Part shown: piece by piece, positions 2,328 to 27,559 of the stretch
How positions within the stretch are numbered: position 1 is the first letter of the stretch
Layout: each line of letters starts with the position of its first letter
IMG/VR virus record: IMGVR_UViG_3300029823_000010
Span: 1-28,506 of that record
Direction: 5' to 3' (one strand)
Length of the DNA: 28,506 bases
From: a virus
Lineage: Duplodnaviria > Caudoviricetes
The notes under the pieces: model-generated
What the model was told of the DNA's origin: nothing
Seen by the model: only the letters and a program-made list of their open reading frames with translations
Databases searched by the model: none
Position numbers and translations under genes: made by a program

Positions 2328-2384
2328 AGAGCACCAAGAGTGCCGATATTTCCTATTTGTTTAGGAGTATTGGCGCTCTTTTTT
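2328..2384 (+). terminator. Intrinsic terminator carrying tandem heptamer site 1
   Basis: AGAGCACC-aa-GAGTGCC; stem AGAGTGCCGATATT(T)CCTA/TAGGAGTATTGGCGCTCT followed by a T run. Confidence 0.85.
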
Positions 2385-3069
2385 ATTTTGATAAGTCTGC
2401 CGGTGTAACACACCGCTATTTCCACAAAAAATAATTGAATAGCGCAAAATAAAAAGCACCCATGAGCTTTAGACTCATAAGTGCTGCGCCGAAAGCAGAA
2501 GCAGTGCTCTCGTACTAATTAATATTTTACCACAAAAAGCGGCGAAATGTCAAGTACGATTTACATTAGCTGATTGCTTCACAAACGGCAGTTGGCTTTT
2601 TATTTTGTCCGTGGCACAAATGCAAACCGGAACCACGCAAAACAAATCAGGCAGGCGGCTCTCACCGACGCAATAACGAGAGGGCAGGGAATAAAGCGCA
2701 TAACACACGCGCTCCCCGTACATAGCGCATAGGTTGTGAGCGAAACGAGCGCAATACAAATACGGAACTCGATTTGGTGCTGGAGGTCTGCGAAGAAGAA
2801 CGCATTGTAGACGGGGTTGCAGATACGTCGTGCAATCGGAAACGGTTGTAATCATGCGCTGGGCTTGTGATAGTCCAGACTATGTGTGTTGCTTTGATGG
2901 TGATGGCTGGCTCCGTATGGGTAGTTATCATAAATCTAAAGTGTAGTTAAATCTCATTGAGATATATTATATATTTAAAAGAAATATAGTGTATGCTCCA
3001 ATGAGAAACTATGCTTTTCCAGCTCCAGCTTCACCGTTGGGTAACATAGTCAGAAAGGGAATGCAAACC

Positions 3070-3252
3070 ATGAAATGTCCTTACATACAGAATCAAGTTA
3101 CCGTTGAGGAAATCGCGCAAGAATTTGACGACAACCAATGTTGTACGGCAGTCACGACAACGAATGTCAAGAACGTTGAGTTGCCCGACTGCTTGCAAGC
3201 AGACTGTGTTGCATGGCGAAATGGCCATTGCAACTTCAAGGGCAACGCTTAA
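3070..3252 (+). CDS. Small Cys-rich hypothetical protein
   Basis: MKCPY...DCLQADCVAWRNGHC; AAGGGA SD before ATG 3070. Confidence 0.7.
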   Translation: MKCPYIQNQVTVEEIAQEFDDNQCCTAVTTTNVKNVELPDCLQADCVAWRNGHCNFKGNA

Positions 3253-3345
3253 ATGCCATTTCCAACGTTTCTGGAGGCCATAGAGAAGATTTTACAGCTT
3301 TCGAGGGTAATTTCACGTCCGGCATATAAAAGGGGCTGAAATGCT

Positions 3346-3567
3346 TTGAAAAACGATAATTTAAAGGGGCGCATAGGGAGGCAAAAACTTATGAAGAGCA
3401 GATATTCGGCTTATCCATATCGCATCCGTAAATCCGACGCAGAAAAGATGCCCGCTATTTCACCTGAAAAGCTGAAGCAAATGAAAAAAGACGTTGAAAA
3501 ATATCTGTCACATAAGGAAAGTGAAAGAGGTTGGATTTCACGAGTGGGAAACAATATAAGAAAGTAA
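3346..3567 (+). CDS. Small basic hypothetical protein
   Basis: ORF abuts terS; AAGGGG SD; start codon uncertain. Confidence 0.45.
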   Translation: MKNDNLKGRIGRQKLMKSRYSAYPYRIRKSDAEKMPAISPEKLKQMKKDVEKYLSHKESERGWISRVGNNIRK

Positions 3568-4362
3568 GTGAGTAGTATGAAAGAAAAAGATAGTATAGAT
3601 ATTACTGCGGAAGATGAACCGCCGAAGGCCGTCCGGCGCATAGGAACAATGGACACTACCGCATACATGGCGGAAGCTCCGAAACGTACCAATCTGACAC
3701 CCAACATTGTCGGCACAGATGAACAGGTCATGCAGATTGCTAAAGGCATGGGCCGCAAAACATTCAATAACCCGATGGAATTGGCAGAGTCTTTACAGGG
3801 ATTTGAAGATTTCTGCGTGAAAAAGAATATAGCCCCTTCTTTTGTAGGACTTGCGATATTCCTTAACATCAGCAAGTCTACCCTCTTAAAATATCTTAAA
3901 GATGAAACAGAATTTACAATAGAGATAGTTGTAAATACTATTACCGGAGAATACGTCTATTCTAATATAGATAAGAGTGCTTTTAATAAGTACATTGAGT
4001 CTGTATATGAAAAAGATAAGAATGGTAATAACTATTCTATTAAAGAGTATATAGAGAAAGGTATTTACAAGATAGAATATAAGTCTTTGACATTCGCTGA
4101 TGTGCTCGCTCCAATGAGGTCACTCATCGAACTTTCTGTGACTAATAAGGGCTTTGAAATGAGGAATCCAGCGATGGCAATTTTCACAATGAAAAACCGT
4201 TTTGGTGAAACGAATCAGTACACTGACGAGCAGCAGATAGCCATTAAGCCGCGCAATCCGTTTGATGAAATGAGTGATGAGCAAATTTTGAACCTCGCCA
4301 AGAACCTTCCAGACGACGAGGAGGGCATTTCTGGAAAAGAAAAGCCGGCGCATAATGAATAA
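3568..4362 (+). CDS. terS: Terminase small subunit (DNA-packaging protein)
   Basis: GRKTFNNPMELAE...F.DFC....APSFVGLAIFLNISKSTL..Y (HTH) and C-terminal AIFTMKNRFG...D.QQI, typical of small terminases. Confidence 0.75.
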   Translation: MSSMKEKDSIDITAEDEPPKAVRRIGTMDTTAYMAEAPKRTNLTPNIVGTDEQVMQIAKGMGRKTFNNPMELAESLQGFEDFCVKKNIAPSFVGLAIFLNISKSTLLKYLKDETEFTIEIVVNTITGEYVYSNIDKSAFNKYIESVYEKDKNGNNYSIKEYIEKGIYKIEYKSLTFADVLAPMRSLIELSVTNKGFEMRNPAMAIFTMKNRFGETNQYTDEQQIAIKPRNPFDEMSDEQILNLAKNLPDDEEGISGKEKPAHNE

Positions 4363-4912: not shown

Positions 4913-5477
4913 CGTCTGCCGCCTCCTCTCCATGCACGAAGCTGTAGAAGGTGTTACGCTTGAGACCGGTTTCTTCCATTGCCTGCGCTCCGGTTATTTC
5001 CCTGCGCTTCCAGCGGGCATAAACGTCCTGCCAGTTTTCGGGCTTAGCTATGCGCTTGCGGCCCTTGTAAACGCCTTTTTGCTTCGCTTTCTCAATTCCC
5101 TCGGCCTGCCGCTCGTGAAGGTTGTCAAGCTCAAACTGATTCAAAACGCCCACCATTCCAAGCATCATTCGCCCTGCCGCTGTGTTCGTGTCGATGTTTT
5201 CTTTCAGCGACACGAGGCCGACACCCTTTCCTTTGAGCACGTCAACGACGTGCAGCAAGTCAAGCAAGGACCGAGAAAGCCGGGAAAAATCCTCGACATA
5301 AATTGTATCGCCCTCCCGGATATACTCCAGCATTGCCCGGAATTGTGGGCGGTCTGTGTTTTTGCCGCTGATTTTCTCGCGGAACCACTTGTCAATCTTG
5401 TACGGAGTGAGCGCGGCGACTTGCCTGTCCTCGTGCTGCTCAATTGTCGACACTCTCACATATGCTACTCTTGCCAT
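4902..5477 (-). CDS. Small serine recombinase (resolvase/invertase family)
   Basis: AYVRVST.EQ...RQ catalytic motif, SGKN.DRP, GDT..V..FSRLSRS, C-terminal HTH (GLKRNTFY); GAGGTG SD. Confidence 0.95.
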   Translation of the reverse strand: MARVAYVRVSTIEQHEDRQVAALTPYKIDKWFREKISGKNTDRPQFRAMLEYIREGDTIYVEDFSRLSRSLLDLLHVVDVLKGKGVGLVSLKENIDTNTAAGRMMLGMVGVLNQFELDNLHERQAEGIEKAKQKGVYKGRKRIAKPENWQDVYARWKRREITGAQAMEETGLKRNTFYSFVHGEEAADDGR

Positions 5478-5488
5478 ATAATCACCTC

Positions 5489-8267: not shown

Positions 8268-8315
8268 AGAGCGCCGGAGAGTGCCATTCCTTTAGAGAGG
8301 GATGGCATTCTTTTT
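8268..8315 (+). promoter_or_regulatory. Tandem heptamer site 2: hairpin occluding the terL SD, with a T run
   Basis: AGAGCGCC-gga-GAGTGCC; GAGTGCCATTCC pairs with GGATGGCATTC over the GAGG SD region; TTTTT then ATG 8316. Confidence 0.8.
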
Positions 8316-9989
8316 ATGTTACCGGAAGATTTTATTCAAGCGAGAGGCAAAATTCTAATAGACTTGAAGCACTACCCAAATATGAAGCTTGACATGAAAA
8401 TTGAAAGTTTTCGTGCGCTTAGAAGCATCTATAAAAAAGACAAAGACACAAGCCACGAGCTATGGGCTAACTATGAATTGCGTAAGTCACTAAACCAAAA
8501 GCTGTCTGAAAGCCTGCCCGCATCTGAAACCAAAAGGTTGTTGAAATACTATTGGAACACATTTTTGGTAGGCTCCAGATATTCTTTTCACGATTATATG
8601 CTGTATTTGGAACATAATCGTGACGCAGATAAAAAGTTCTATGAGAACCGGCTCGCACAGTTAAGACCGATTGTACAGGACTTGCAAGACCTTTACGATG
8701 GTAAAATAATGCGGCTTGGCATATCACTTCCCCCGGGGGTTGGGAAAACCGCATTAATTATATTTTTCTTGTCGTGGGTAATGGGGAAAGACCCGTTAAA
8801 GCCTAATTTGTACTCTGGATATGCTGATAAACTTTGCCGCGGCACGTTCGACGGCATTATGAGCATACTGAAAGACCCGGAATATTGCTACAATGAGATT
8901 TTCCCCGATTCTCCGCTTGCCACTACAAACGCAAAAGATGAAAGCATCGACCTTGTAAAGCCGCAGAGGTTTAAGACCTTTACGGCTCGTTCGCTGGATT
9001 CAAGTTTGACCGGTGCTACACGCTGCGAGAACATTCTTGTGCTCGACGACGCTGTTTCTGGCATTGAGGAAGCCATGAATCTCGAACGGTTGGATTCTTT
9101 ATGGATGAAAGTTACAAATGACCTTTTCAGCCGAGCCAAAGAGGGCTGCCGCGTTCTTCTGGTGGGAACTCGTTGGAGCTGCCATGATGTTTTGGGGCAT
9201 ATGGAATCAAGATATGGCGGAGACAAACAGTCAAAATTTATTCGTATTCCCGCACTGAATTCAAATGGCGGTTCAAACTTTGAATACAAACATGGAGTTG
9301 GCTTTTCACGCGAGTATTTTGAAAATATGCGTGGCAGCATGGATGATGTATCTTGGAGAGCCATCTACCAGCAGGAGCCGATTGAAAGAGAAGGCCTACT
9401 TTACCCGAAAGATAGCCTGCATTACTATTTTGACCTCCCAAATAATCGGCCGGATGCGATTATTGCGGCCTGCGACAGTAAAAACCAAGGCAAAGATTTT
9501 GTTTGCGCTCTTTGCGGCTATGTTTACGGGGAATCGGTGTATATCCCTGACTTGGTATTCAACAACGGTCTGCCGGAAGTCACTAAGCCACTTGTCGCAA
9601 ACCTGTGCATAAACAATAAAGTGAGCCGAATGGATATAGAATCCAATAATGGCGGCGAATATTACGCGCAGGACGTAGACGACCAGATTAAAAAGCGCGG
9701 CGGTTACACTTCCGTGAGGACATTTTTTACTTCAACCAACAAAATCACTAAAATCATAACTGAAAGTGACTTTATCAAAAAGCATTTTGTGTTTTTGGAC
9801 GAATCGAAGTTACAAGATGGTAAGCATGAAGAATACAAAGCGTTCATGCGTAACCTTTTGGAATTTACAATCACTGGCAAAGTAAAGCATGATGACGCTC
9901 CAGACGCACTTTCCATGCTTTCACAGCTCGTAAAGGATTTGTCCGGAATGGACGTAAGAATAATCGACCGTCGGAGCTTGCCGTTTTAA
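8316..9989 (+). CDS. terL: Terminase large subunit
   Basis: Walker A ISLPPGVGKT, Walker B LVLDD, motif GTRW, YQQEP, nuclease HDDAPDAL. Confidence 0.95.
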   Translation: MLPEDFIQARGKILIDLKHYPNMKLDMKIESFRALRSIYKKDKDTSHELWANYELRKSLNQKLSESLPASETKRLLKYYWNTFLVGSRYSFHDYMLYLEHNRDADKKFYENRLAQLRPIVQDLQDLYDGKIMRLGISLPPGVGKTALIIFFLSWVMGKDPLKPNLYSGYADKLCRGTFDGIMSILKDPEYCYNEIFPDSPLATTNAKDESIDLVKPQRFKTFTARSLDSSLTGATRCENILVLDDAVSGIEEAMNLERLDSLWMKVTNDLFSRAKEGCRVLLVGTRWSCHDVLGHMESRYGGDKQSKFIRIPALNSNGGSNFEYKHGVGFSREYFENMRGSMDDVSWRAIYQQEPIEREGLLYPKDSLHYYFDLPNNRPDAIIAACDSKNQGKDFVCALCGYVYGESVYIPDLVFNNGLPEVTKPLVANLCINNKVSRMDIESNNGGEYYAQDVDDQIKKRGGYTSVRTFFTSTNKITKIITESDFIKKHFVFLDESKLQDGKHEEYKAFMRNLLEFTITGKVKHDDAPDALSMLSQLVKDLSGMDVRIIDRRSLPF

Positions 9990-10019: not shown

Positions 10020-10069
10020 TTGTACAGTTTCGCTCATGTGTTGCATTTACATTCAATTTGTGGTATAAT
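10020..10069 (+). promoter_or_regulatory. Conserved sigmaA-type promoter, copy 2
   Basis: TTGTAC-N15-TTGCATTTACATTCAATTTGTGGTATAAT. Confidence 0.85.
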
Positions 10070-10089: not shown

Positions 10090-10154
10090 AGAGCGCCTTT
10101 GAGTGCCAAAGCAGAAACGATTATTCAATCTTTTGTATCGGGAGAAGGCGCGAC
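10090..10154 (+). promoter_or_regulatory. Tandem heptamer site 3 in the portal leader
   Basis: AGAGCGCC-ttt-GAGTGCC; GCGCCTTT can pair with GAAGGCGC (10144-10151) between the SD and ATG 10155. Confidence 0.75.
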
Positions 10155-11717
10155 ATGATATTTGAAACTAACAATAATGAAATTCTCAATGCCCTCGGTA
10201 AAGACCATAAATTTCTCGGGCGCAGAGCGATTTATACATCTCGTGCAGAAGATGAAATTAACGAAAACACGATTCCAGCTGTTGTGAATGGCGCTATGCA
10301 GCGGCATCTTATCAACAGGCAGGAAATCATATATTTGTTTCGGTATTTTTGCGGTGACCAGCCAATCCTTTCCCGCAAAAAGGCCGTTCGTCCAGAAATA
10401 AACAACAGGCTTGTCATAAACAACGCCTATTCTATTGTCCGCAATTCTACAGGCTATTTCCTTGGCGAGCCTATTCAATATACGGCAAAAGAGAGCAGCG
10501 ATAACAACGATGTTATGCAGCTCAACACCTTTATGGACAGCGAAAACAAAGCGCAGGAAGATATCAAGCTTGCGCAGGACGCTTCCATTTGCGGCACGGC
10601 ATATCGCCTTGTGTCAGTTGGAGACGGCACAGAAGAAGATGAAGCCCCGTTTGAAATCCCAACTTTGGAACCATGGAATACATTCGTAATTTACTCTTCA
10701 AAAGCAGGCCATAAGCCACTTTTGGGAGTTACATATAGCAAGTTGCTTGACGATAATGGCAACGTAAGCGGCACACTTTATACAGTTTATGACAAAGAAT
10801 GCCAATATCAGTATTCCGTTGAGGGCGGCTTCACAACACAAATCAAAGCCGAGAACATAATTGGTACTCCAAAAGCACATTTCCTCGGGGCAGTGCCAAT
10901 TATTGAATACCCAAACAACGAATTCAGAATTGGTGACTTTGAAGTTGTAATGACAATTCTTGATGCCATATCGCAACTTCATTCAGACCGTATGAACAGT
11001 ATACAGCAAATTGTAAATTCGGTGCTTGTGTTTATTGGCTGCCATATGAAGAGCAAAGAAGAAAATCAAGCCAAAGGCGAAGGAAACGCAAGCGACTACG
11101 ATATGCTCCAGCAATACGGAGCAATGGAATTGCCTGCTACAGGGGGCACGGCAAAACCGGAAGTTAAATATGTTAGCGCTTCTGTAGACCAGAATGAGGC
11201 CGAAACGCTTGCGCAGACACTAATTGACTACGCCTACGCAATTTCTGGTATTCCTGACCGCAAGCAAAAGAGTAGTGGAGCGGGTGGAGAAACAGGGGAC
11301 GCGGTTTATCTCCGTGACGGATTCCAGTCTTTGGAGCTTGTTGCTCGCGTGAAAGAGCGCAGCTTTAAGCAGTCTGAGCGGCAGTCGCTCCGCATGATTT
11401 GCAAGATTCTGAAAATTTTCAATGGCATTGACTTGAAGCCAATGCGAGTTGATGTGAAGTTTATCAGAAACCGCACAAACAACCTCGTTAATAAGTCTCA
11501 GGCCGCAGTCAATTTGAGGCAAACGGAAATGTTTGCTCCGGAAGATATTATAGGCCTTATCGGTGTTACAGATGATGCAAAGAGCATGGCAAAAAGGGGA
11601 GAAGAGTGGCTAAAGCAAAACTCACAGCAGCACTCTGAGACGAAGCCAATAGCTCAAAAAAATGTGGAGGCAGACACAGGCAATGGTGGGAACGGATACA
11701 GTGGAACAATGGCGTGA
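10155..11717 (+). CDS. Portal protein, SPP1 gp6-like
   Basis: 520 aa after terL; NNRLVINNAYSIV....GYFLGEPIQY, HFLGAVPIIEYPNN...GDFE.V..ILDA. Confidence 0.92.
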   Translation: MIFETNNNEILNALGKDHKFLGRRAIYTSRAEDEINENTIPAVVNGAMQRHLINRQEIIYLFRYFCGDQPILSRKKAVRPEINNRLVINNAYSIVRNSTGYFLGEPIQYTAKESSDNNDVMQLNTFMDSENKAQEDIKLAQDASICGTAYRLVSVGDGTEEDEAPFEIPTLEPWNTFVIYSSKAGHKPLLGVTYSKLLDDNGNVSGTLYTVYDKECQYQYSVEGGFTTQIKAENIIGTPKAHFLGAVPIIEYPNNEFRIGDFEVVMTILDAISQLHSDRMNSIQQIVNSVLVFIGCHMKSKEENQAKGEGNASDYDMLQQYGAMELPATGGTAKPEVKYVSASVDQNEAETLAQTLIDYAYAISGIPDRKQKSSGAGGETGDAVYLRDGFQSLELVARVKERSFKQSERQSLRMICKILKIFNGIDLKPMRVDVKFIRNRTNNLVNKSQAAVNLRQTEMFAPEDIIGLIGVTDDAKSMAKRGEEWLKQNSQQHSETKPIAQKNVEADTGNGGNGYSGTMA

Positions 11718-11929
11718 CGCAGAGGAAGGAAGCAATCCAGATGACGCAACAGATGGAGAAGAATAAAGGACCGCTTGTCGAAGTCCGTTGCAACAACATC
11801 ATGTACAATCCGGCAACGGACAGATATTACACGTGCAACCGGCTTTTGGGGAGACTCCCGAAAGATTCGGAATATCAGATAAAATGCCCCAAATGCGGAC
11901 ATATGAACGTAAAGGGGAAAACGGAATGA
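11714..11929 (+). CDS. Mu Com-like zinc-ribbon regulator
   Basis: EVRC-x14-CNRLLG...YQIKCPKCGHMN resembles Mu Com (IRCxxCNKLL...EIRCPRC); start GTG 11714 (coupled to the portal stop) or ATG 11741. Confidence 0.8.
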   Translation: MTQRKEAIQMTQQMEKNKGPLVEVRCNNIMYNPATDRYYTCNRLLGRLPKDSEYQIKCPKCGHMNVKGKTE

Positions 11930-12097: not shown

Positions 12098-12211
12098 ATG
12101 AATCAGAATGAAAGATGGTACCCAAAGCCAAAAGATTCCGACGATTTATCTTTTGGATACAAGGTTGATTGTTGTAGCCATTGTTACGTGGATAAACAAG
12201 TAAATACATAG
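12098..12211 (+). CDS. Small hypothetical peptide (37 aa)
   Basis: MNQNERWYPKPKDSDDLSFGYKVDCCSHCYVDKQVNT*; GAGG SD; its TAG overlaps heptamer site 4. Confidence 0.4.
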   Translation: MNQNERWYPKPKDSDDLSFGYKVDCCSHCYVDKQVNT

Positions 12212-12265
12212 AGCGCCTTTTGAGCGCCGGTTTTTCGAGAAATCGAATTGCTGGCGCTCTTTTTC
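12210..12265 (+). terminator. Intrinsic terminator carrying tandem heptamer site 4
   Basis: AGAGCGCC-tttt-GAGCGCC; GAGCGCCGGT...GCTGGCGCTC stem then TTTTTCTTCTT. Confidence 0.85.
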
Positions 12266-12310
12266 TTCTTTATTCAATTTGAAATTAATACCGGTGAAAG
12301 GTTGACAAAT

Positions 12311-14487: not shown

Positions 14488-15207
14488 ATGAAAATGAAAA
14501 GGTTTAACACAATTTCTAAATACGCAAGGCGCTTTGATGGTGAAGGCGGCGGCGGTTCTGCCACAGGGGCAGCTTCTGCGGCGTCTGCCACAACAGGCTC
14601 AGAGGCATCTACCGGCGTTGGAAGCGGCACTCAAACCGCAGCAGTACCCACAACACAGACAGCTGCGGAGGAAACAAAGCCTTTTAAAACTTTTGCTTCG
14701 CAGGCCGACTTTGACCGCGAAATTCAGCAAGCCTTGAAATCCCGCGAGGAATCCATCAAGGCAAAACTCACACCAGAAATTAAAGCTCAACTCGACAAGG
14801 AATCCAAAATGACAGCAGAGCAAAAGGTGCAAACAAAACTTGACGAGTTGAATAATCAAAAGGCGGAACTTGCAAAAGAAAAATGCCGCATCAAGGCTGA
14901 GTCATTGCTTGTCAGCAAGGGCATTACCGATGAAGTTTCACGCTCCACAATGCTTGACAGTGTAGTAACAGGAGACGAAACAGAAACATTGAAGCGTGCA
15001 CAGGCTCTTGTAGACGCTATTGACAAAGCCACTAATGACAAAATTAAGGAAGAAATGAAAAGAGTCAAAAAGCCTGCTTCTGACGTTGGACAAAACGACG
15101 AGAACAAAACCATTGCCGTGAAGTATGCTCAAGACTATGCTAAACGCCGCGCAACTGCATCAAAAGCCTCTAATGACATTCTGAACCAGTTTATCCACAA
15201 GGAATAA
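14488..15207 (+). CDS. Capsid scaffolding protein (DUF4355-like)
   Basis: FDGEGGGG N-terminus, low-complexity linker, KTF.SQADFDR, KMTAEQK coiled coil; lies upstream of the decoration and capsid genes. Confidence 0.8.
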   Translation: MKMKRFNTISKYARRFDGEGGGGSATGAASAASATTGSEASTGVGSGTQTAAVPTTQTAAEETKPFKTFASQADFDREIQQALKSREESIKAKLTPEIKAQLDKESKMTAEQKVQTKLDELNNQKAELAKEKCRIKAESLLVSKGITDEVSRSTMLDSVVTGDETETLKRAQALVDAIDKATNDKIKEEMKRVKKPASDVGQNDENKTIAVKYAQDYAKRRATASKASNDILNQFIHKE

Positions 15208-15221
15208 TGGAGGGTTAAATA

Positions 15222-15554
15222 ATGAAATTTACTAAGACTGGCACATATGGCGATACCACAGAAATTCTTGCCAACGACCATTATGTAGCCATTACAAAGG
15301 CGCTCAACTTTGCAGGCAACAGCACAGGTATTTTTAAGGCCGGTACACCGATTGGTGCAGATAGCAAAGCAGCTACAACAACATCTAATGTTTCGAATGC
15401 AGTCGGTATTCTGCTTTCAGACGCCACAGCAGACAATCCAAACGGCACCATTATTGTCCATGGGTTCATTGACACAGCAAAAGCACAGGCAAATTCTGGT
15501 GTTACGATTGACGCAGCCACAAAATCCGCACTTCCAATGGTGCTCTTTTGCTGA
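15222..15554 (+). CDS. Head decoration protein
   Basis: KAGTPIG, AVGILLSD, GTIIVHGFID; between scaffold and major capsid. Confidence 0.75.
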   Translation: MKFTKTGTYGDTTEILANDHYVAITKALNFAGNSTGIFKAGTPIGADSKAATTTSNVSNAVGILLSDATADNPNGTIIVHGFIDTAKAQANSGVTIDAATKSALPMVLFC

Positions 15555-15573
15555 TTAACAGGAGGAAATAATT

Positions 15574-16650
15574 ATGAATTTAACTGACCTTTTTTCGCCA
15601 CAAGCCGTTTCCGTGGCGTTCACAGAAAACCCGAGCAATAAACAGCCTTTTTTTGGCGCAGGACTTTTCCCTGAGCGTAAGAAAGCAGGGCTTGACCTTT
15701 CATGGATTAAAGGCACACATGGACTCCCAATTTCCTTGAAGCCCTCCAACTTTGATGCAAAAGCAACATTCCGCGATAGAGTCGGTGTTTCAAAGATTGA
15801 ATCCGAAATGCCATTCTTCCGTGAAGGCTACCACATCAATGAAAATGACCGGCAGGAAATCCTTAAGGCACAGGACTCTGGCAGCCCGTTTGTGCAGACC
15901 GTCCTCGACAACATCTACAACGATGTCAATGGCCTTGTCACAGGTGCTTATGTTGTACCTGAGCGCATGAGAATGCAACTTCTTGCTCCAGATTCCGGCA
16001 ATGTCGGTATTCATATCTCGGCTAACGGTGTGGATTACTCATACAACTATGACCCTGACGGCAGCTGGAAAGCATCTAACTATGTGCCTATTGCGGATGC
16101 AACAAAAAAGTGGAATGTTTCAGATACAGCGACACCAATTACAGACATCGAAGCTGTTCAGGATACTATTGAAGATGCTACAGGTTCACGCCCCAACACT
16201 GCAATTATGAGCCGTGCAACATTCAATATGCTTATGGCCTCTAAGCAGGTTCACGATGCTGTACTTGCGCGCAACCCAACAGCAAACGTCTTTATTACTC
16301 CGAGTATTGTTAAGCAGGCTTTTGCACAGATTCTCGGTGTTGACATTGTTGTTTACACTAAAAAGTTCCGTGACGAAAGTAAGGCCATTCATGCGTACTA
16401 TCCAGACAATTATGTCACGCTGTTTGATAGCGAAGTAACCCTTGGCAGTACATATTACGGCACAACGCCAGAAGAAGCAGACCTTATGGGCAAATCCACG
16501 CCGCAGGCAAGGACTTCTGTAGTCGGCACCGGCGTTGCAATAACGCAGATTTTAGAGCCGCACCCAGTGAATCTCGAAACGATTGTATCTGAAATTGTGC
16601 TTCCGTCTTACGAAGGCATGAATACGGTCGGCGTGTTGAAGGTGGCTTAA
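15574..16650 (+). CDS. Major capsid protein (lambda gpE-like family)
   Basis: 358 aa; LFPERK..GL.L.WIKG, SNFDAKA..R.R, MPFFRE, G.TYYGTTPEEADL. Confidence 0.9.
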   Translation: MNLTDLFSPQAVSVAFTENPSNKQPFFGAGLFPERKKAGLDLSWIKGTHGLPISLKPSNFDAKATFRDRVGVSKIESEMPFFREGYHINENDRQEILKAQDSGSPFVQTVLDNIYNDVNGLVTGAYVVPERMRMQLLAPDSGNVGIHISANGVDYSYNYDPDGSWKASNYVPIADATKKWNVSDTATPITDIEAVQDTIEDATGSRPNTAIMSRATFNMLMASKQVHDAVLARNPTANVFITPSIVKQAFAQILGVDIVVYTKKFRDESKAIHAYYPDNYVTLFDSEVTLGSTYYGTTPEEADLMGKSTPQARTSVVGTGVAITQILEPHPVNLETIVSEIVLPSYEGMNTVGVLKVA

Positions 16651-18459: not shown

Positions 18460-18516
18460 AGAGCGCCTCCGAGCGCCACATAAACATTGTTTATTTTGCG
18501 ACGGGGGGAACACTTT
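18460..18516 (+). promoter_or_regulatory. Tandem heptamer site 5 in the major-tail-protein leader
   Basis: AGAGCGCC-tcc-GAGCGCC; CCTCCG pairs with the SD region CGGGGG (18502-18507) through a long interrupted hairpin. Confidence 0.75.
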
Positions 18517-18963
18517 ATGGCAGCTATAACTCCGAGAGCTATTTCAGACTATAAAACCTATTTATACGTCGAAGGCACAACCGCAGGGAAATACCACAAG
18601 ATAGTCGATATTATTTCCGCACCAGCAACAGGCTCAACTCCAAAAAGCATTGACGTAACAACTCTTTCGGATTCACAGAGCGTTGGTATACCGGATAGGC
18701 CACAAACGCCTTCACTCGAATTTGAGTATAACTACACGAAAGAAAACTTTGCGGCTGTTGAGGCCGCAGTAAGCCTGACTGATGACAAAAACTACCTGAT
18801 TATTTTTCAGGACGACACAGGGTGGCAATTCACGGCACGTGGTGCTACATACACAGACGCCGTTTCAAAAGGCAAGCAGATTACTGCAAAGCTTGGCCTT
18901 GTAACTTCCACTGTGCCTGAGCATATTGACGATGTAACGTCTATGCTTGAGACCACTGCTTAA
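18517..18963 (+). CDS. Major tail (tube) protein
   Basis: P.TG.TPKSIDVTTLSD, LEF.YNY; likely start ATG 18517. Confidence 0.85.
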   Translation: MAAITPRAISDYKTYLYVEGTTAGKYHKIVDIISAPATGSTPKSIDVTTLSDSQSVGIPDRPQTPSLEFEYNYTKENFAAVEAAVSLTDDKNYLIIFQDDTGWQFTARGATYTDAVSKGKQITAKLGLVTSTVPEHIDDVTSMLETTA

Positions 18964-19572: not shown

Positions 19573-19988
19573 TAAATAAAGGCCAGCGTTTAAATTCTTT
19601 TTCAGAATACTTAGAAACTAAAATGTTTCCCGACGCTATCTTGTGCGGGTGTCCGTATGATGTGTTCTGGTATCATGACCCACGGGAATTTTGGAGCTAT
19701 GTAAACGCTTTTCAAAGCAAGCAAAAAGTTGAAGCAAAACAGAAAAATGCCTTTGCATGGTTGCAGGGCGAATACATAGCAAAAGCTATCGGTGCTGTGC
19801 TTCCTAATGGTGACGCTTATCCAAAGCGTCCATATTCGTTTAAAGACGATAAGCAGGAAAGTATACCAGATAACGCAGAAAACGCAGCAGAGGACACTAC
19901 AGACACCAACAGGGATATGATTGATGCACAACTCATTCGTGCCGGCTCAATCATCAAAGAGAAGAAAGGCAATGCTAAAAACAATTAG
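19494..19988 (+). CDS. gpGT-like -1 frameshift extension of the tail chaperone
   Basis: The -1 frame is open from the slippery G_GTT_TTT (19494-19500) through the ORF 19623-19988, which has no SD of its own. Confidence 0.7.
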   Translation, partial: GFYVGRGQCYNDEELYREQSAESVSVINKGQRLNSFSEYLETKMFPDAILCGCPYDVFWYHDPREFWSYVNAFQSKQKVEAKQKNAFAWLQGEYIAKAIGAVLPNGDAYPKRPYSFKDDKQESIPDNAENAAEDTTDTNRDMIDAQLIRAGSIIKEKKGNAKNN

Positions 19989-20037
19989 AGCTTCTTTGAA
20001 GGCCATGCTGAAAATAACAGCTTGGCCTTTTATTTTT
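19987..20037 (+). terminator. Terminator with a degenerate tandem heptamer (site 6) before the tape measure gene
   Basis: AGAGCTTC-ttt-GAAGGCC; AAGGCCA(T)GCTG/CAGC(T)TGGCCTT stem then TTATTTTT. Confidence 0.6.
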
Positions 20038-20056: not shown

Positions 20057-23000
20057 ATGGCAGATGGAGATGACCTCACCATTGAAGTTGCAGCTTCGAC
20101 CGAACAAGCCGATTCTGCAATTCAAAGGATTTTAAAGACAATAGATGAATTGGGGGAACACATCAATAGGCTGGTGCCCTCCCTCGCAAAATTTTCTGAA
20201 AAGATGGATTCCATTGCTTCCGGTCCAAAGGCATTTTCTACCCTTGACAAGCTTTCTAAAAGCACTGACAATGTGGCAGCCTCCAGCAAAAAGGCGGAAG
20301 CAAATGAAGCCATGTATCAAGCGCGTTTAGACCGTGCAAATGTATCCATGGAGCGCTCAAGCCAGCAAATCGATAAATTAGCAGCAGCAAAAGAAAAGTT
20401 GGCAAGTATCGATGAATCGCAAGCAAAAAACAATGCTGCTTTTTCTATGCCACCAGAAGAATTTCAAAGGAAATATGGCTTTAACGCAAGCGCTTCAGCC
20501 ATGGGTAATGAGGCATATACGGCTCCTACACCCGTAAATTCGCCAACCGTAGACTACAACCCTGCAAAAATTGAAGCAGCAATGGACGCAGCCACAGCGC
20601 AGATTGAGGGCAAGCACCCGAAAGTCAACCTTGACACTAATATGGCGACACAACAGATTCGCCAAATTAGCGCATACATAGACAACCTTACTCCGCAGAT
20701 TTCCGGTATGTCGGCAGAAGCACAAGAAAAGTTTAATGCAATAGCTACATCTCTATATACTGTCAGCCAGCAACTGGACAATCAGCGCATGATTTATCAT
20801 AATCTTGCAGCGGAGACTGAAAAGGTTGGGCAGAAACAGGGAACAGGCAGCGACGCTTATCTCATGCTTGAAAAAAAGATGCTTTCTGCCGCATCGGCTA
20901 CAGATACACTTTCTGCAAAGCAGGAAAAGTTAAAAGAAGAGCTCAATGACGTTGCATCTGCTTCTAAAGAAGCCGGAGACGCAGAAGAAAAAAGTGCCAG
21001 CCATGCTTCCAGAGGGTGGGGCAACTTGCTTCGAATGTCTGAAAATATGCTCGCCCGTATTTCAATGTTCAGACTGTTTAGTGCCGCCACACAAGGCATT
21101 GCAACGGGTATTCAGGACATGGCACTTGCAAGCAGTCAAGCCAACAGTACAATGTCTGCTTTGTCGGCAGATTCACTTTATCTCAAGAATAGCTTGGGCG
21201 CAGCCCTTATGCCTACGTTACAAGCACTTGTACCCACTATAAACCAAGTATCAGATGCTTTAGCAGACGTATTTAACACTATCGGAATGCTGACTGCTCG
21301 CATTTTCAACCATGCTTCATCTGTACAGATTGCTAAACGCTCATATGTGGACTATGCAAAAACAATCAATCAAAGTGGGAATGACTCTTCACAAGTTGCG
21401 TCGAAAGAAGCAGCAGCGCAAGAAAAGGCCATCAAAAAAGCAGCAGCAGCTCAAGAAGCCGCTACCAAAAAGCAGGCAGCTCAAGAAGAAAAAATTGAAG
21501 AAGCAGAAGAAAACGCGCAAAAAAAACAGGCAGCAGCCGAAGAGCGTGTACAGCAAGCAATTAAAAAGCACCAGCAGAAAATTGACGCTATGAAAAAAAG
21601 CATCATGGGCTTTGATGAGCTGAATACACTTACTGCAAAAGTAACAGATACATGGACGGCTCCAAAGGTGCCGGACTATATGTCTAAACTGCCAAAAGCT
21701 AAGAACTATATGGCCAACATACCTTCCGCCGCATCATACAATACCGCAGCAACTCCGGCATGGAATGGCAAGCAAAGCCCAAAGGAAATGTTTAAAACGG
21801 TAAAAGTGCCAGAATGGATTAATAAAATTGGAAAAGTCACAGACAAAATTTCTGCTTTTATTAAGACAAACCTTGAAAGAATCAAAAGGCTCTTGCGTGC
21901 CGCTCCGTTAGTAATAGGTGCAATCCTTGCATTTTCCGGAGCTAATGTTCCTCTTGGCATCGGGCTTATGGCGTTTGGCGCTATTGGTATGGCAAAGCAG
22001 ATAAAAGAGGACTGGGACTATTTAAACGACAAAACAAAAAGCAGCCTTGACAAAACAAAGCAGTTGCTTGAGATAGTGGGCGCAACCGAAATTGCCATAG
22101 GCGCTATCATTGCGTTTTCAGGTGGCAATGTTCCTCTTGGTATTGCCCTTATGATTGGCGGAATTACCACAACTGCCGCTTCCATGAATTGGGGAGCTAT
22201 AACAGACAAAGTACGCACTGTTTTGACCACTATTACAGGGATTGTCGGCGGTGCATCTCTTGCAATCGGCGTTATGCTGGTATGCCTTGGAAGTTATGCA
22301 CTTGGCGTAGGGTTCATTATAGCAGGCGCGTTGGACATCGCCTCTGCCATAGCTCTTGACGCTACCGGTCCGACAAATCAGGTTTCCAACACTATCAATC
22401 TAATTACGGGTATTGCGTCCGGCGCTATGCTTGCTATCGGTACCATATTAGTGTGTTTGGGAATTATAACGCCTATGAGCATTGGCCTTATTGTTGCAGG
22501 TGCAGTTGGCCTTGCAGCATCGGTTTCCCTTGACTGGGGCGCCATTGGAAAAGATGTTGGAAAAATTCTGGACGACATTAAAAAGGCGTTTGGAGATGCT
22601 TGGGATTCAATAAAAAAGATTTGGAACGGCGCTCCAAAATGGTTCGGCGGTGTATGGGATGGCATTAAGAGCAAATTCAAGCCAAACCTGATTTCAGACG
22701 CCTTCAAAACAGCATGGAGCAAGATACAAGACGCTTGGAAGGGCGGCCCGGACTGGTTCAAAAACATAGGCAGAAACATTGCCAATAACGTTGTAGGCAA
22801 AGTCCTCGGAGCTGTAAACGGAGTAATCGGCGGAGTAAACTGGGTTCTCGGAGCAGTGGGGTCGAAAACGCGAATTAAGCCTCTTACAATTCCAAAGTAT
22901 GCCTATGGTGCTGGTGCTCATCCAGGAGGTGCAGCCATTGTCAATGATGCTCCAGGCTCAACATATCGCGAGCTTGTGCAGCTCCCTAACGGCAGGGCAT

Positions 23001-24022
23001 TCATTCCAAAAGGCAGGAATGTTCTTATTCCAAACCTGCCAAGAGGCTCAAAGGTGCTCCCTGCAAAAGAAACGCATACGCTATTTCCACATTACGCTGG
23101 AGGTATAGGCGCTTTCTTTGGAAATGCAATATCTTCTATCAAGGATTTTGGCACAACGATGTGGAAATACATCAGCGAACCGAAAAAGCTATTTCAACTC
23201 GCAGTAGACAAATTTGTGAATGCAATTCACATAAACGAGCCGTGGCTTTCACTCGGGAATTCTGCTGTGAAGTTTGTCACAAACCATGTGGCAGACGCGC
23301 TGAAAGGCATTTTTGCAAAATTCTCTCCACCTTCCGGAGTGGGGGGATACGGAGTTGATCGTTGGAGCGGGATAGCCACACAAGCGCTGCGCATGACTGG
23401 ACAATACTCATCCGCGAATCTAAGTCGTCTGCTCATGCAGATGCAGTCTGAATCTGGAGGCAACCCGTATAGCATCAACAAATGGGACAGCAACTGGGCC
23501 GCAGGCCATCCTTCCAAAGGGCTGATGCAGCTTATTGACAGCACGTTCCGCTCGTATGCCTATCCGGGCTACGGCAGCAATATTTACGACCCGCTTTCCA
23601 ACATTCTCGCGTCCATACGCTATACGGTTTCTCGGTACGGCTCTTTGGCCGCAGGGTGGCGCGGACACGGATACGAAAGCGGCATTGGCAAGATCGACTT
23701 TGCCGGGTGGAATGCTGATGGAGCACTGTTTACGAAACCCGCCCTTGCAGGAGTGGGAGAGGCCGGGCCGGAAGCTGTGCTTCCGCTCAACGATGGTGTA
23801 TTTTCACAGATCGCGCGTGGCATTCAAAAGAACGGCGGAGAAGATAGAGACATAGACATTCTGAACCGCATGGACAGTATTTCGGAGCAGCTCGAAAGGC
23901 TCGAAAAAGCAATTCTGGAGCGTCCGGTCAATCTTTATACGACCGATGAAAAGATTGCTGAATCTGCAAATAAAGGGAATAGACAACTTGGAAAACGCTA
24001 TCATAGAATTATCGTAGAATAA
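20057..24022 (+). CDS. Tape measure protein with C-terminal lytic transglycosylase (SLT) domain
   Basis: 1321 aa, Ala-rich helical; GFDELN; hydrophobic repeats; W-spaced repeats; ESGGNP..IN.WD.N...G.PSKGLMQ.I..TF. Confidence 0.93.
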   Translation: MADGDDLTIEVAASTEQADSAIQRILKTIDELGEHINRLVPSLAKFSEKMDSIASGPKAFSTLDKLSKSTDNVAASSKKAEANEAMYQARLDRANVSMERSSQQIDKLAAAKEKLASIDESQAKNNAAFSMPPEEFQRKYGFNASASAMGNEAYTAPTPVNSPTVDYNPAKIEAAMDAATAQIEGKHPKVNLDTNMATQQIRQISAYIDNLTPQISGMSAEAQEKFNAIATSLYTVSQQLDNQRMIYHNLAAETEKVGQKQGTGSDAYLMLEKKMLSAASATDTLSAKQEKLKEELNDVASASKEAGDAEEKSASHASRGWGNLLRMSENMLARISMFRLFSAATQGIATGIQDMALASSQANSTMSALSADSLYLKNSLGAALMPTLQALVPTINQVSDALADVFNTIGMLTARIFNHASSVQIAKRSYVDYAKTINQSGNDSSQVASKEAAAQEKAIKKAAAAQEAATKKQAAQEEKIEEAEENAQKKQAAAEERVQQAIKKHQQKIDAMKKSIMGFDELNTLTAKVTDTWTAPKVPDYMSKLPKAKNYMANIPSAASYNTAATPAWNGKQSPKEMFKTVKVPEWINKIGKVTDKISAFIKTNLERIKRLLRAAPLVIGAILAFSGANVPLGIGLMAFGAIGMAKQIKEDWDYLNDKTKSSLDKTKQLLEIVGATEIAIGAIIAFSGGNVPLGIALMIGGITTTAASMNWGAITDKVRTVLTTITGIVGGASLAIGVMLVCLGSYALGVGFIIAGALDIASAIALDATGPTNQVSNTINLITGIASGAMLAIGTILVCLGIITPMSIGLIVAGAVGLAASVSLDWGAIGKDVGKILDDIKKAFGDAWDSIKKIWNGAPKWFGGVWDGIKSKFKPNLISDAFKTAWSKIQDAWKGGPDWFKNIGRNIANNVVGKVLGAVNGVIGGVNWVLGAVGSKTRIKPLTIPKYAYGAGAHPGGAAIVNDAPGSTYRELVQLPNGRAFIPKGRNVLIPNLPRGSKVLPAKETHTLFPHYAGGIGAFFGNAISSIKDFGTTMWKYISEPKKLFQLAVDKFVNAIHINEPWLSLGNSAVKFVTNHVADALKGIFAKFSPPSGVGGYGVDRWSGIATQALRMTGQYSSANLSRLLMQMQSESGGNPYSINKWDSNWAAGHPSKGLMQLIDSTFRSYAYPGYGSNIYDPLSNILASIRYTVSRYGSLAAGWRGHGYESGIGKIDFAGWNADGALFTKPALAGVGEAGPEAVLPLNDGVFSQIARGIQKNGGEDRDIDILNRMDSISEQLERLEKAILERPVNLYTTDEKIAESANKGNRQLGKRYHRIIVE

Positions 24023-24619: not shown

Positions 24620-24642
24620 AGTAAAATTCCTCCCACGTCGTA

Positions 24643-24670
24643 ATCTTAGCATATATTTCTCATATGTCAA
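24643..24670 (-). promoter_or_regulatory. sigmaA promoter for the lipoprotein gene
   Basis: TTGACA-16 bp-TAAGAT with TG extension. Confidence 0.6.
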
Positions 24671-24767
24671 TAGGCGGCAGCACTATTCTGCTGAAAAATT
24701 CTTACGGACAATTTCCCTTATTATATCACACCCGTATGAGATATACAAGTATTATTCTTAATGTGAA

Positions 24768-24817
24768 TTGTACATAGCAGCTATGCACTTGCATTTACAT
24801 TCAATTTGTGGTATAAT
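24768..24817 (+). promoter_or_regulatory. Conserved sigmaA-type promoter, copy 3
   Basis: TTGTAC-N15-TTGCATTTACATTCAATTTGTGGTATAAT. Confidence 0.85.
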
Positions 24818-24996
24818 ATAGGAGCTGGGAGGAACACCTCCCAAAGGTACAAAAAGGGCGCTATCCTTGCGCGGGAGAAAAGCGGTTGCCGCCGCAACTG
24901 CCGCGCCCTTTATTTTTTTATTCACGGCGGCATACCGGCATAGAAACTTGTTTGGGCAAGGACAACGTGCCAGAAAGATACGGCGGGGTCAAAAAT

Positions 24997-25350
24997 ATGA
25001 ATTATCGAGAAAAGTACAAACGCCACTATGGCATTGTTTTTGGGCCAGAGTATGAAGTACATCACATCGATTTGAACCACAAAAATGATGATATTGAAAA
25101 TCTTTTGCTCTTACCAAAAGATTTGCACAGAGCATATCACAAAATAATAGCTGAATTATGTGGGCCAGAGGATTTAAGCCATTTTACTCTTGACTTTGCA
25201 ACATTAGACCCATATTCTGAAAACTTTGCATCAAGTGTTGGCAAATTATGCAGTATTATAGGGCAATGTCAAAGATGGATACAGTACAAAGAATCTCTCG
25301 ATAGCAGGGTTTACTATCATTATAATATCTCGGCAGGGGGCGCCACCTGA
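24997..25350 (+). CDS. HNH endonuclease
   Basis: YEVHHIDLNHKNDDIENLLLLPKDLH..YH; likely start ATG 24997 after GGGG. Confidence 0.8.
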   Translation: MNYREKYKRHYGIVFGPEYEVHHIDLNHKNDDIENLLLLPKDLHRAYHKIIAELCGPEDLSHFTLDFATLDPYSENFASSVGKLCSIIGQCQRWIQYKESLDSRVYYHYNISAGGAT

Positions 25351-26093
25351 TGATTTATAGAGTTGAAAGAAAAGAAAATCCCTTCGTCCAAGTTGATAAG
25401 GGATTTATCAATGATAAGCGATTAGGGTTTAAAGAAAAAGGAATTCTTCTTTATTTTTTGAGTAAACCGGACGGCTGGAACTTTTACGAAGAAGAAATTG
25501 CTTCAAATTCCACTGACGGACTTTCGGCAGTTAAAGCCGGAATTCACAAGCTAATGGAAACTGGATATATCGTTCGTGGAGAGCGCCAGAGAAACGGGAA
25601 AGGTCAGCTTGGTGCGTATGAATATGTTGTAAAAGAAGTTTCAGCCACATGCGAAAACCCTACGCAGGAAAACCCTACGCAGGAAAACCCTACGCAGGAA
25701 AACCCTACGCAGGAAAATCGCACCTTAGTAAAGAATGAAGATAGTAATATATATAAGAATAATATAGAGAGTAAAGATACTCTTGCGGAGAAGTCAAAAG
25801 ATTCTCCGCAGGACGAACCGGCAATCATTACTCTTTTGCTGAATGACAAATCAGAATATCCAATCACACAAAAGCAGATTGATGAATGGAAGCCGCTCTA
25901 TCCAGCAATCGATGTTATGCAGGAATTCCGTAATATGAAGGCATGGCTGATTTCTAACCCGACCAATAGAAAAACAAGACGGGGAATTATGAAATTTATC
26001 AATGGGTGGCTGTCAAGGGCACAGAACCGAGCGCCAAGGCAAAATGCGACCACTCAACCAGCAAACAACCCGTGGGAAGGTGTCCGGTCATGA
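25350..26093 (+). CDS. Phage replication initiator (N-terminal wHTH, iteron-encoded repeats)
   Basis: NPF.QV....IND.RL..KEKGILLY.LSKPD.W; (ENPTQ)4 linker; C-terminal W...YP.IDV.QE...M.AWL..NP..RKT.RG..KFI..WL; directly upstream of DnaB. Confidence 0.85.
   Translation: MIYRVERKENPFVQVDKGFINDKRLGFKEKGILLYFLSKPDGWNFYEEEIASNSTDGLSAVKAGIHKLMETGYIVRGERQRNGKGQLGAYEYVVKEVSATCENPTQENPTQENPTQENPTQENRTLVKNEDSNIYKNNIESKDTLAEKSKDSPQDEPAIITLLLNDKSEYPITQKQIDEWKPLYPAIDVMQEFRNMKAWLISNPTNRKTRRGIMKFINGWLSRAQNRAPRQNATTQPANNPWEGVRS
25653..25712 (+). repeat. Four 15-bp tandem iterons (probable replication origin)
   Basis: (GAAAACCCTACGCAG)x4 followed by an AT-rich tract at ~25740-25780. Confidence 0.8.
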
Positions 26094-27319
26094 TTCCTTC
26101 CTATGATGCAGAATCCGCAGTTATTGGAGGATTACTCCGCTGCCCGGAAGAATGCTCTTCCGCAATTGATGCTTTGAATCCGGGAGACTTTGAGAACCCG
26201 TACGCGGCAAAGGCGTTTGAAATTATCAAAGACGGCGTTAAAGCTGGAAAGACGATAGACGCTTCCATATTTGGCAGCGAAAATACGGACGCGGAGGTAA
26301 AACAGTTTGCTATAGCGGCAACGGAGACTTTTCTTACGCCCTCCAACTTTGACGGATATATTGCAACAGTTAAAGAGCTCAGCAACAGGAAAAAACTTTT
26401 TAGCCGATTGCAGGAAATATCATTTGAGGCCGATGACTGCGCCGTTACCGTTGACAAGTTGTCAAAACTTGTTGACAGTGCCCGGTCGAATATGACAGAA
26501 AAAGACGACGATAACTTTTTGATAGACTACATCACAAGCCTTGACAAACCCATTGACCCATCGAGCCGAATTCAGACAGGGTTTCCATGGTTGGACGAAA
26601 AGTTAAAAGGAATCCGAAAGGGTTCTCTCTGCTATATTGGCGCAGCCCCGAGCACTGGAAAAACGGCATTTGCAATTAACATATTAGCAAAGAACCGGAG
26701 AAATGGCAAAAAGGTTTTGATGTTCAGCCTTGAAATGTCAAAGTCGCAAATCCTCGACCGTTATTTTTCTTCCGAACTCAATATTGACTATTCCCATCTT
26801 GACACACGGAATCTTTCAGATGACGAAATACAAGAGGTAGTTGACGCGACCTCACGGATTCAGGAATGCAAGAATTTTAAAATAATAGACGATACATATT
26901 CTATTGAATCTATTTCAGCAAAGACAGCTCAATATCATCCAGACCTTTTAGTCGTGGATTACGTTCAAGTAATTCAGACTTCGCAAAGGTTTTCCAGCAG
27001 AAAAAACGAAATTGACCATATTTCATCTGAACTCAAACGCATTGCAAGAATGAATGATTGCGCTGTAATTGCGCTTTCGCAGGTTGCACGTTCAAATGAG
27101 GCTCCTTCAATGTCCAGCTTAAAAGAATCTGGCGACCTTGAAGCAAACGGAGACTACATTATTCTTATGCACCGGCCTTATGTTACAGACAAAAAGCAAA
27201 ATCCCCACCAAACATTTATTCTGCTCGACAAAAACAAATACGGAGAATGCGGAACTGTGGAATTAAGCTTTGATGGAGCACATCAACGCTTTACGGAGGT
27301 AGAAAATAGATATGGCTGA
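26090..27319 (+). CDS. dnaB: Replicative DNA helicase, DnaB family
   Basis: AESAVIGGLL, TGF..LD, AAPSTGKT, FSLEMS, VVDYVQ, ALSQ, L.ESGDLE, KNKYGECG; ATGA overlap with the initiator stop. Confidence 0.95.
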   Translation: MIPSYDAESAVIGGLLRCPEECSSAIDALNPGDFENPYAAKAFEIIKDGVKAGKTIDASIFGSENTDAEVKQFAIAATETFLTPSNFDGYIATVKELSNRKKLFSRLQEISFEADDCAVTVDKLSKLVDSARSNMTEKDDDNFLIDYITSLDKPIDPSSRIQTGFPWLDEKLKGIRKGSLCYIGAAPSTGKTAFAINILAKNRRNGKKVLMFSLEMSKSQILDRYFSSELNIDYSHLDTRNLSDDEIQEVVDATSRIQECKNFKIIDDTYSIESISAKTAQYHPDLLVVDYVQVIQTSQRFSSRKNEIDHISSELKRIARMNDCAVIALSQVARSNEAPSMSSLKESGDLEANGDYIILMHRPYVTDKKQNPHQTFILLDKNKYGECGTVELSFDGAHQRFTEVENRYG

Positions 27320-27494
27320 CAATACGCGCACCAACCGAGAGACCGCTCAAATAATTAAGAGAAATATTGAATTTCTCATTAAAGCGGTAGTATCAGATGG
27401 TAAATATGATGGAATTGAAAATCTGCTTGAAGCGAGAAAACAAGTTAGTATGTTTTTAGGTAAGCATCCCATAACGGATGACTACTTAATCTAA
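27312..27494 (+). CDS. Small hypothetical protein
   Basis: Overlaps the dnaB stop; GGAGGT upstream. Confidence 0.6.
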   Translation: MADNTRTNRETAQIIKRNIEFLIKAVVSDGKYDGIENLLEARKQVSMFLGKHPITDDYLI

Positions 27495-27505
27495 AACAAA
27501 GCATT

Positions 27506-27559
27506 AGAGCGCCATTAGAGCGCCTGACCTATTTAGAAGATAGGTTGGGCGCTTTTTTT
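27506..27559 (+). terminator. Intrinsic terminator carrying tandem heptamer site 7
   Basis: AGAGCGCC-atta-GAGCGCC; AGCGCCTGACCTAT/ATAGGTTGGGCGCT stem then T6. Confidence 0.88.

Follow-up and report, generated by a model that had tools for sequence, protein, structure and literature searches.

Seven copies of a Com-type RNA hairpin among the virion genes of a phage fragment: a probable late-gene switch

We analyzed a 28,506-base virus record (IMGVR_UViG_3300029823_000010; Caudoviricetes), called below the window, i.e., the whole stretch of DNA at its full length. The record is a fragment; it carries on the + strand the genes of the terminase large subunit (terL), an SPP1-type portal protein, scaffold, capsid, connectors, tail tube and tape measure. 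An independent contig from a fermenter (L393; L numbers designate the sequences used for comparison) was identical to the window across 5027-21926. We observed in the window seven sites which are copies of one RNA hairpin, along with a gene of a small zinc-ribbon protein of the Com family. Binding of the Com-like protein to each hairpin, while the RNA is still being made, is likely to open the genes for packaging, head and tail one site at a time. An earlier note, made from the sequence alone, had proposed that such a protein serves as a genome-wide late switch. The comparative tests (the fit to a selected RNA motif, the tracking of Com genes and their strand, the position in terminator arms, the virion targets) supported the switch, while the term genome-wide has to be confined to the virion module, since the window is a 28.5-kb fragment.

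Sequence and predicted folds of the seven sites

The earlier note had described six tandem heptamers on the + strand and a degenerate copy at 19987, all of them intergenic. The strict tandems GAGYRCC-N-GAGYRCC were indeed present at 2329, 8269, 10091, 12211, 18461 and 27507, one base further on in each case, after a leading A, and there were none on the - strand. In dinucleotide shuffles (n=500, both strands) the corresponding numbers were 0.004 strict tandems (maximum 1) and 0.094 for a looser GAGNNCC tandem. The degenerate copy was found as well, with the motif running from 19988. All seven sites were located between open reading frames (ORFs); at 12211 and 19988 the motif opens on the TAG stop codon of the upstream ORF.

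Each tandem is better read as a single 4-bp hairpin, GA-stem-C-N2-5-GA-stem-C, than as two boxes. Positions 3-6 of heptamer 1 pair with positions 3-6 of heptamer 2, leaving a loop C-N2-4-GA. The pattern GA-NNNN-C-N2-5-GA-NNNN-C with four pairs and no other base fixed, which was framed after the site variants had been seen and is not a blind test, occurred exactly seven times on the + strand and never on the - strand, compared to 0.37 per strand (maximum 3) in shuffled sequences (n=300). No decoy-type array of extra sites was seen in the window, as the hairpin scan returned the seven alone. The pairing rule accounts for the odd site at 19988, a full variant in which U-A closes the stem GCUU/AGGC; variants of this type stand beside Com also in L313, L327 and L396.

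An RNA selection (systematic ligand evolution through exponential enrichment, SELEX) with the Com zinc finger is described in sections of PMC6483171; there the site is a bipartite GAG(N)2CC with a 3-4-bp stem closed by C-G, bound in the hairpin form, while the duplex, preferred in an earlier report, is bound weakly. The SELEX motif NGAGNNCC(N)2-3GAGNNCC fits six of the seven sites, except for a spacer of length 4 at two. By sequence, six of the seven sites have the bipartite GAG(N)2CC arrangement within a short hairpin; by the hairpin pattern, all seven do. Among Rfam families, none passed the gathering threshold at the sites in a search with E up to 5; a sub-threshold NrrF match (25.4 vs 60 bits) was located on the other strand at 27518-27636.

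The earlier note had named covariation of the hairpins as a check, and the stem does covary among the sites linked to Com. Of the distinct strict sites located next to Com genes (n=70), 51 had both variable pairs intact; in 5000 permutations the mean was 28.4 and the maximum 37. Counted as distinct NN combinations, pairing was kept in 12 of 17 (permutation mean 3.5, maximum 10). An alignment of gates ahead of terL (n=17) had 12 terminator pairs, six of them with changes on both sides; heptamer 1 was nearly invariant, though it is unpaired in the terminator fold. Across 22 records, a degenerate GARNNYC tandem without the pairing rule occurred at roughly the frequency of its reversed control and was uninformative.

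The sites (gates, below), the com gene and the genes next to them are the following (SD, Shine-Dalgarno sequence; aa, amino acids):

2329..2387, + strand: gate 1, hairpin 2329-2344 over the 5' arm of a predicted terminator (-24.5 kcal/mol), just 3' of tRNA-Gln
3568-4362: weak candidate for terS, the terminase small subunit gene (E 3.8e-5)
8269..8318, + strand: gate 2, hairpin 8269-8285 over a predicted terminator (-21.7 kcal/mol, U-tract), which also buries the SD of terL (ATG 8316)
8316..9989, + strand: terminase large subunit (phrog_38), target of gate 2
10091..10157, + strand: gate 3, hairpin 10091-10107, heptamer 1 predicted to pair over the portal SD (ATG 10155), no terminator
10155..11717, + strand: SPP1-type portal (PF05133), target of gate 3
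11714..11929, + strand: Com-family C4 zinc-ribbon gene (PF10122, phrog_6417), directly 3' of the portal gene
12211..12268, + strand: gate 4, hairpin 12211-12228 over the strongest predicted terminator (-26.2 kcal/mol)
14488..16650, + strand: scaffold, head decoration and major capsid genes, downstream of gate 4
18461..18519, + strand: gate 5, hairpin 18461-18477, rival fold predicted over the SD and AUG (18517) of the major tail protein gene, the weakest fold contrast
18517..18963, + strand: major tail protein, i.e., tail tube (phrog_158), target of gate 5
19988..20036, + strand: gate 6, variant hairpin over a predicted terminator (-15.2 kcal/mol), ahead of the tape measure gene (20057)
20057..24022, + strand: tape measure protein (phrog_167), target of gate 6
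27507..27561, + strand: gate 7, hairpin 27507-27524 over a predicted terminator (-22.8 kcal/mol), between a replication module and the DUF6711 gene
27599..27961, + strand: DUF6711 protein (PF20458 / phrog_1194), target of gate 7

Terminators were predicted with a threshold of at most -11 kcal/mol and six U in nine. The four sites that the earlier note had placed in terminators (2328, 12210, 19987 and 27506) were all predicted as such, but its list was incomplete, as 8268 is a terminator too, with a U-tract. Similarly, the SD was predicted to be covered at all three sites assigned there to ribosome binding site (RBS) hairpins (8268, 10090 and 18460), but the first one is chiefly a terminator. 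The split is therefore five terminator-type and two RBS-only sites. At the terminator-type gates (2329, 8269, 12211, 19988, 27507) heptamer 2 makes the base of the stem, with the U-tract next to it. Nine terminators were predicted on the + strand, and five of them, the four strongest included, contain a site. A stem hiding the translation start was predicted at 8269 (where it covers the GAGGG ahead of terL), 10091 and 18461, and not at the other four sites. Forcing the small hairpin removed the larger stems, at a predicted cost of 5.3-16.5 kcal/mol.

The targets listed in the earlier note could be retained for terL, the portal, the capsid block, the tail tube and the tape measure, and less so for terS and Dit. 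The target downstream of gate 1 is uncertain: the terS candidate is weak and located 1.2 kb on, with an ungated hairpin and U-tract (2569-2605) in between. Gate 4 is situated behind com and ahead of tRNA-Met, phosphoesterase, HNH and head genes. The DUF6711 protein behind gate 7 is probably Dit-like, judging by its position and a weak fold match. Its predicted model has a tail-tube-like fold (pLDDT, the predicted local distance difference test, 71), and its fold matches were all tail or baseplate tube folds (best PDB match at E 5.8e-3, SPP1 Dit at E 0.026, none at E <= 0.001). The DUF6711 gene is directly behind the tape measure gene in L387 and L389; in the window the two are set apart by the replication module. 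It is followed at 27997 by a phrog_6616 tail protein gene, cut by the window end.

Com genes and sites in other phages

The ORF at 11714-11929 scored 23.3 bits against PF10122 (Zn_ribbon_Com; cut-off 22.9), a marginal pass, and its close homologs scored 23.1-27.1 bits; the match to phrog_6417 had E 1.6e-4. By comparison with L121 and L126 the start is probably the ATG at 11741, giving a protein of 62 aa. All four zinc-ligand cysteines were invariant across the 30 rows of alignment A1. The nearest Com cluster takes its name from a Ruminococcaceae genome. Among solved structures, no Com matched A1 at E below 0.001. Searches with the window Com sequence returned few relatives (2 clusters, and 14 representatives, several of which were unrelated long proteins), and 16 weak matches came up when annotated phages were searched by tblastn with a short Com. 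Many short Coms carry a TERQKSAS-like tail (L196:1628-1753, L139:5006-5137 and others), because the RNA site sits within the final com codons.

For the protein-side survey, we used a query of ten Coms (A2) with the C-terminal tail left out, as this tail is often encoded by the site itself. The sample had 80 viral and 30 genomic loci; all 110 were counted, and 73 remained after repeats of the first 27 residues were removed, a few of them probably not Com. In the 73 loci, we found 55 strict tandems on the Com strand and one on the opposite strand, compared to 3 and 1 for the reversed control. Such a tandem was present in 43 loci, with two or more in 11. With the hairpin rule, the numbers were 103 on the Com strand and 9 on the opposite strand, and for the terminator class 62 and 0. 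A site was found within -150..+700 of com in 57 of the 73 loci; the sites are concentrated around the 3' end of com and often fall within its final codons. A terminator fold was predicted for 55 of 70 tandem sites compared to 40 of 855 lone heptamers.

The RNA-side search, for a tandem with its terminator complement, gave an estimated ~180 stretches in the viral collection compared to 26 for a permuted pattern of equal degeneracy. A local Com profile had been seeded from site-bearing loci, and the test for Com was therefore repeated with PF10122 on 76 distinct records, taken from the first 80 loci in a list of 125. A PF10122 match was found in 36 of the 76 RNA-first records and in 1 of 26 controls. 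Among 39 whole records picked by hand, 25 had two to four strict tandems; apart from the site searched for, they had 39 further ones together, and the reversed control gave 16; a single family of gut phages is over-represented in this set. A plain tandem scan of viral contigs produced mostly GC-rich chance matches, with Com in 7 of 120 loci, and is not used as support.

These results bear on the scan of related phages that the earlier note had called for: the sites track Com genes and the Com strand. A motif equally common on both strands, or in phages lacking Com, would have spoken against the idea. The strand bias was pronounced (62 vs 0 for the terminator class, 6 vs 0 strict tandems in the window). 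As for Com itself, PF10122 was enriched over the controls, but five records with a site and a terminator, picked among those without a PF10122 match, gave no Com with A1 or in a local six-frame search. The gates of these five are L403:15322, L406:17766, L407:13334, L411:12165 and L415:8563, four of the records being at least 90% complete. The phages are candidates for a Com of a host or helper, or for another protein.

Sites in front of terS, terL, portal, scaffold, tail tube, tape measure and DUF6711 recurred in unrelated phages. Elsewhere, the first ORF after a site (63 + 19 proteins) was mostly terL, scaffold, portal, tape measure or phrog_1194. Rarer were terS, tail tube, head protease, endolysin, Mu-type methyltransferases, integrase and two regulators, with some ORFs unassigned. 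The gate behind com was kept, with changed stems, in 7 of 7 relatives (L121-L127), and the terL gate was kept wherever the region was present and checked (L121, L122, L124, L125, L073, L396). L396 has a tape-measure site of the same variant type and at the same place as gate 6. Equivalents of gate 5 before the tail tube gene were found in L396 and L358, the latter with five gates, before terS, terL, scaffold, tail tube and tape measure. No relatives of the window tail-tube gene were found in viral contigs. Sites before phrog_1194 were present also in L387, L389, L391 and L416. The system also occurs at a Clostridium leptum and an Oceanobacillus locus (L364, L351). We conclude that the conserved core consists of two gates (at terL and behind com), with up to five gates elsewhere and seven here, the largest breadth among the phages compared.

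One family of gut phages has a third site, which is not on the late-gene strand but on the opposite one (L382:13736 (-) and L386:6633 (-)). This site overlies the SD of an ORF of 27 codons, located upstream of a helix-turn-helix (HTH) regulator, and hints at a link with the lysogeny module.

Proposed action of Com, alternatives and neighboring features

The binding of Com, the direction of its effect, the timing and the feedback are what we infer here. Without the protein, the larger stem would win, i.e., the terminator at five sites and the cover of the SD or start at two. The small hairpin would form first during transcription and be captured by Com. Bound Com would hold the hairpin, and the terminator would lose seven pairs next to the U-tract; at gates 3 and 5 bound Com would free the ribosome site. 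A promoter-like repeat before the portal gene, one of three copies in the window, may start a portal-com RNA that ends at gate 4:

1237..1286, + strand: copy 1 of repeat D2, extended -10 type, upstream of gate 1 (promoter scan match 1258-1286)
10020..10069, + strand: copy 2 of repeat D2, ~20 nucleotides (nt) ahead of gate 3, not in the consensus promoter scan
24768..24817, + strand: copy 3 of repeat D2, ahead of the replication module that ends at gate 7

Text akin to the -35/-10 of copy 2 is present before the portal gene in L121 and L126. Upstream (5') of the -35, a conserved part of this 50-nt repeat could be a regulator site. As no terminator is predicted between copy 2 and gate 4, Com would be produced in quantity first, and the opening of all gates would follow. 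The position of com behind gates 2 and 3 would create positive feedback. Since each strong terminator has its own site, the action of Com is probably local, but four weaker terminators have none.

Several observations weigh against this interpretation. One inner pair was broken in 19 of 70 strict sites, in 13 of them by A-C/C-A, and four of the nine predicted + terminators (2200, 2569, 12844, 24026) have no site. With the hairpin forced, the openness of the SD at the start regions rose modestly (0.36->0.45, 0.42->0.55, 0.34->0.51). The Pfam score of the window Com is marginal, and its lineage has a 12-residue insertion between the first two cysteines. No nearby site was found in 16 of the 73 Com loci; the A2 query was built from site-bearing Coms and the loci are related, so the counts do not represent independent events. 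In the RNA-first set 40 of the 76 records, many of them fragments, had no PF10122 match. Finally, the regulon size varies, with 1-5 gates elsewhere compared to seven here.

Control by Com could be confined to the conserved pair of terminators, at terL and behind com, and the remaining five sites could be recent copies with weak or no effect. We consider this unlikely, though the turnover of gates argues for it. The portal gate was absent in all close relatives checked (L121, L123-L127, L396), and L121 and L123, with Com 90% identical, also lack the tail-tube and tape-measure gates over the homologous genes. At most two terminator-class sites were found within 10 kb of com in each of the 73 loci, and the fold contrast of gate 5 is small. 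On the other hand, L396, with Com 64% identical, keeps four of the five sites of the shared span; its tail-tube and tape-measure sites are among them, with changed sequence and the same fold types. Sites in L358, L387, L389, L391 and L416 precede the same gene classes, and a variant contig in RNA run X4 keeps the tail-tube tandem with a different spacer. The RNA runs are assembled contigs, in which transcript ends, strand and level are not readable, and missing cover of terL in run X1 does not count as evidence.

That the switches are real but opened by another factor (a host protein, a Com from elsewhere in the cell, or RNA polymerase itself) appears improbable. The five records with a switch and no detectable Com fit such a factor, as does the marginal family score; the enrichment of PF10122, the clustering of sites at the 3' end of com, often within its last codons, and the match to the Com SELEX motif all point back to Com. 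It is still less probable that Com binds and acts otherwise, favoring termination, or protecting or marking processing ends. Free RNA strongly favors the terminator, so capture by Com would have to be kinetic. However, the Com-bound form reported is the small hairpin, which is incompatible with the terminator base or the SD-covering stem, and Com of phage Mu is an activator. A DNA operator, with the tandem as a direct repeat for a transcription factor, is hardly credible. Most heptamer pairs in the window do look like direct repeats, and, read on the complementary strand, the A-C mismatches of 13 among the 70 sites would become G-T. Across phages, however, the heptamers change in such a way that they stay complementary rather than identical, the strand bias is strict, and the sites are embedded in terminator stems whose 3' arm forms G-U pairs.

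Beyond the likely opening of the virion genes by Com in the window, we see an even chance that a broad group of Bacillota siphophages has Com as its master regulator of late genes, a 62-residue zinc ribbon taking the place of a transcription activator, with a portable 16-19-nt hairpin built into terminators and ribosome sites, self-amplifying feedback, gates gained and lost gene by gene, and all seven working here. If true, Com would turn from a one-gene curiosity of phage Mu into a post-initiation timer of late genes, a timing route used by temperate phages of gut and fermenter anaerobes. This would also explain a tiny, usually unannotated gene that often ends within its own binding site. With the hairpin rule, late genes could be told apart in a simple way in phages that have not been cultured. 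A protein of 62 residues that acts through a short RNA site on both transcription and translation would lend itself to use as a compact synthetic switch.

The replication module at 24068-27494, between the tape measure and the Dit-like gene, contains an HNH-like ORF, an initiator with 15-nt repeats at 25653-25727 and a DnaB helicase; it has an ungated terminator (24026-24065) in front and its own promoter-like repeat. The region 1300-2318, about 1 kb without a convincing ORF, has tRNA-like loops and tRNA-Gln at its end, and is possibly a large structured RNA; in an Rfam scan of this region only the tRNA passed its family cut-off. A type-P5 twister ribozyme was detected at 6982-7037 (-) with 46 bits vs 37.6. 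Just ahead of the terL gate, 7763-8174 holds a Cro/C1-type HTH gene and a NUMOD4/HNH fragment; terL of L121 encodes 914 aa and probably contains an insertion. Just behind gate 4, at 12530-12832, a sub-threshold tmRNA-like match (38.9 vs 47 bits) is followed by a tRNA with a CAT anticodon.

Comparison with known systems

The closest relation is to com-mom of phage Mu. The window protein shares with Mu Com the C4 zinc ribbon and the Pfam family PF10122, and the natural Mu site, as given in parts of PMC6483171, fits GA-stem-C-N3-GA-stem-C by eye. Mu Com is described there as an activator whose site overlaps an inhibitory stem. In contrast to the single site of Mu, the window has seven; five of its inhibitory stems are predicted transcription terminators, its targets are virion genes, and the phage is a non-Mu-like siphophage. 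No mom or DNA methyltransferase gene was found among the 47 ORFs scanned in the window, itself a fragment. According to portions of PMC3299994 and PMC6240691, com genes precede bacteriocin, lysis and methyltransferase genes, and the latter paper states that the general regulatory role of Com is still to be explored. These loci resemble the window in having a small com just ahead of the regulated cargo; unlike the window, they have one com per cargo gene, and those portions describe no terminator control or distant sites. In our comparison set, com-methyltransferase loci were L328, L337 and L375.

In the antiterminators BglG and SacY with their ribonucleic antiterminator (RAT) sites, and in TRAP attenuation, a protein with local action at each site binds a short RNA element overlapping the intrinsic terminator's 5' arm. 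The predicted overlap of site and terminator 5' arm is alike at five window sites and at 55 of 70 elsewhere. The window differs in its 62-aa zinc ribbon, 4-bp hairpin, phage late genes and mixed output on transcription and translation, and CAT RNA-binding or PRD domains had no Pfam match among 39 window proteins. The window system would thus work like BglG/SacY, without being a member. In lambda N/Q and HK022 put, polymerase is modified once and several terminators are overridden. Processive antitermination, with conAn (sections of PMC8191782) as a further case, is similar in that long or late operons are opened past several terminators; in the window, unlike there, every gated terminator is provided with a site of its own, and at two of the sites there is no terminator.

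A Com acting on terminators or at several sites was not found in the open literature, the subscription journals being outside the search; only translational control by Com-mom was. The word Com does not occur in the main text of the RNA-motif surveys PMC11109978, PMC8632094 and PMC5737381, whose supplements may list the motif under another name. Shared with Mu com-mom are the protein family and the site type; the terminator output, the virion targets and the multi-site use are not. The window adds the largest gate set among those compared, both output types in one phage, and the pairing rule.

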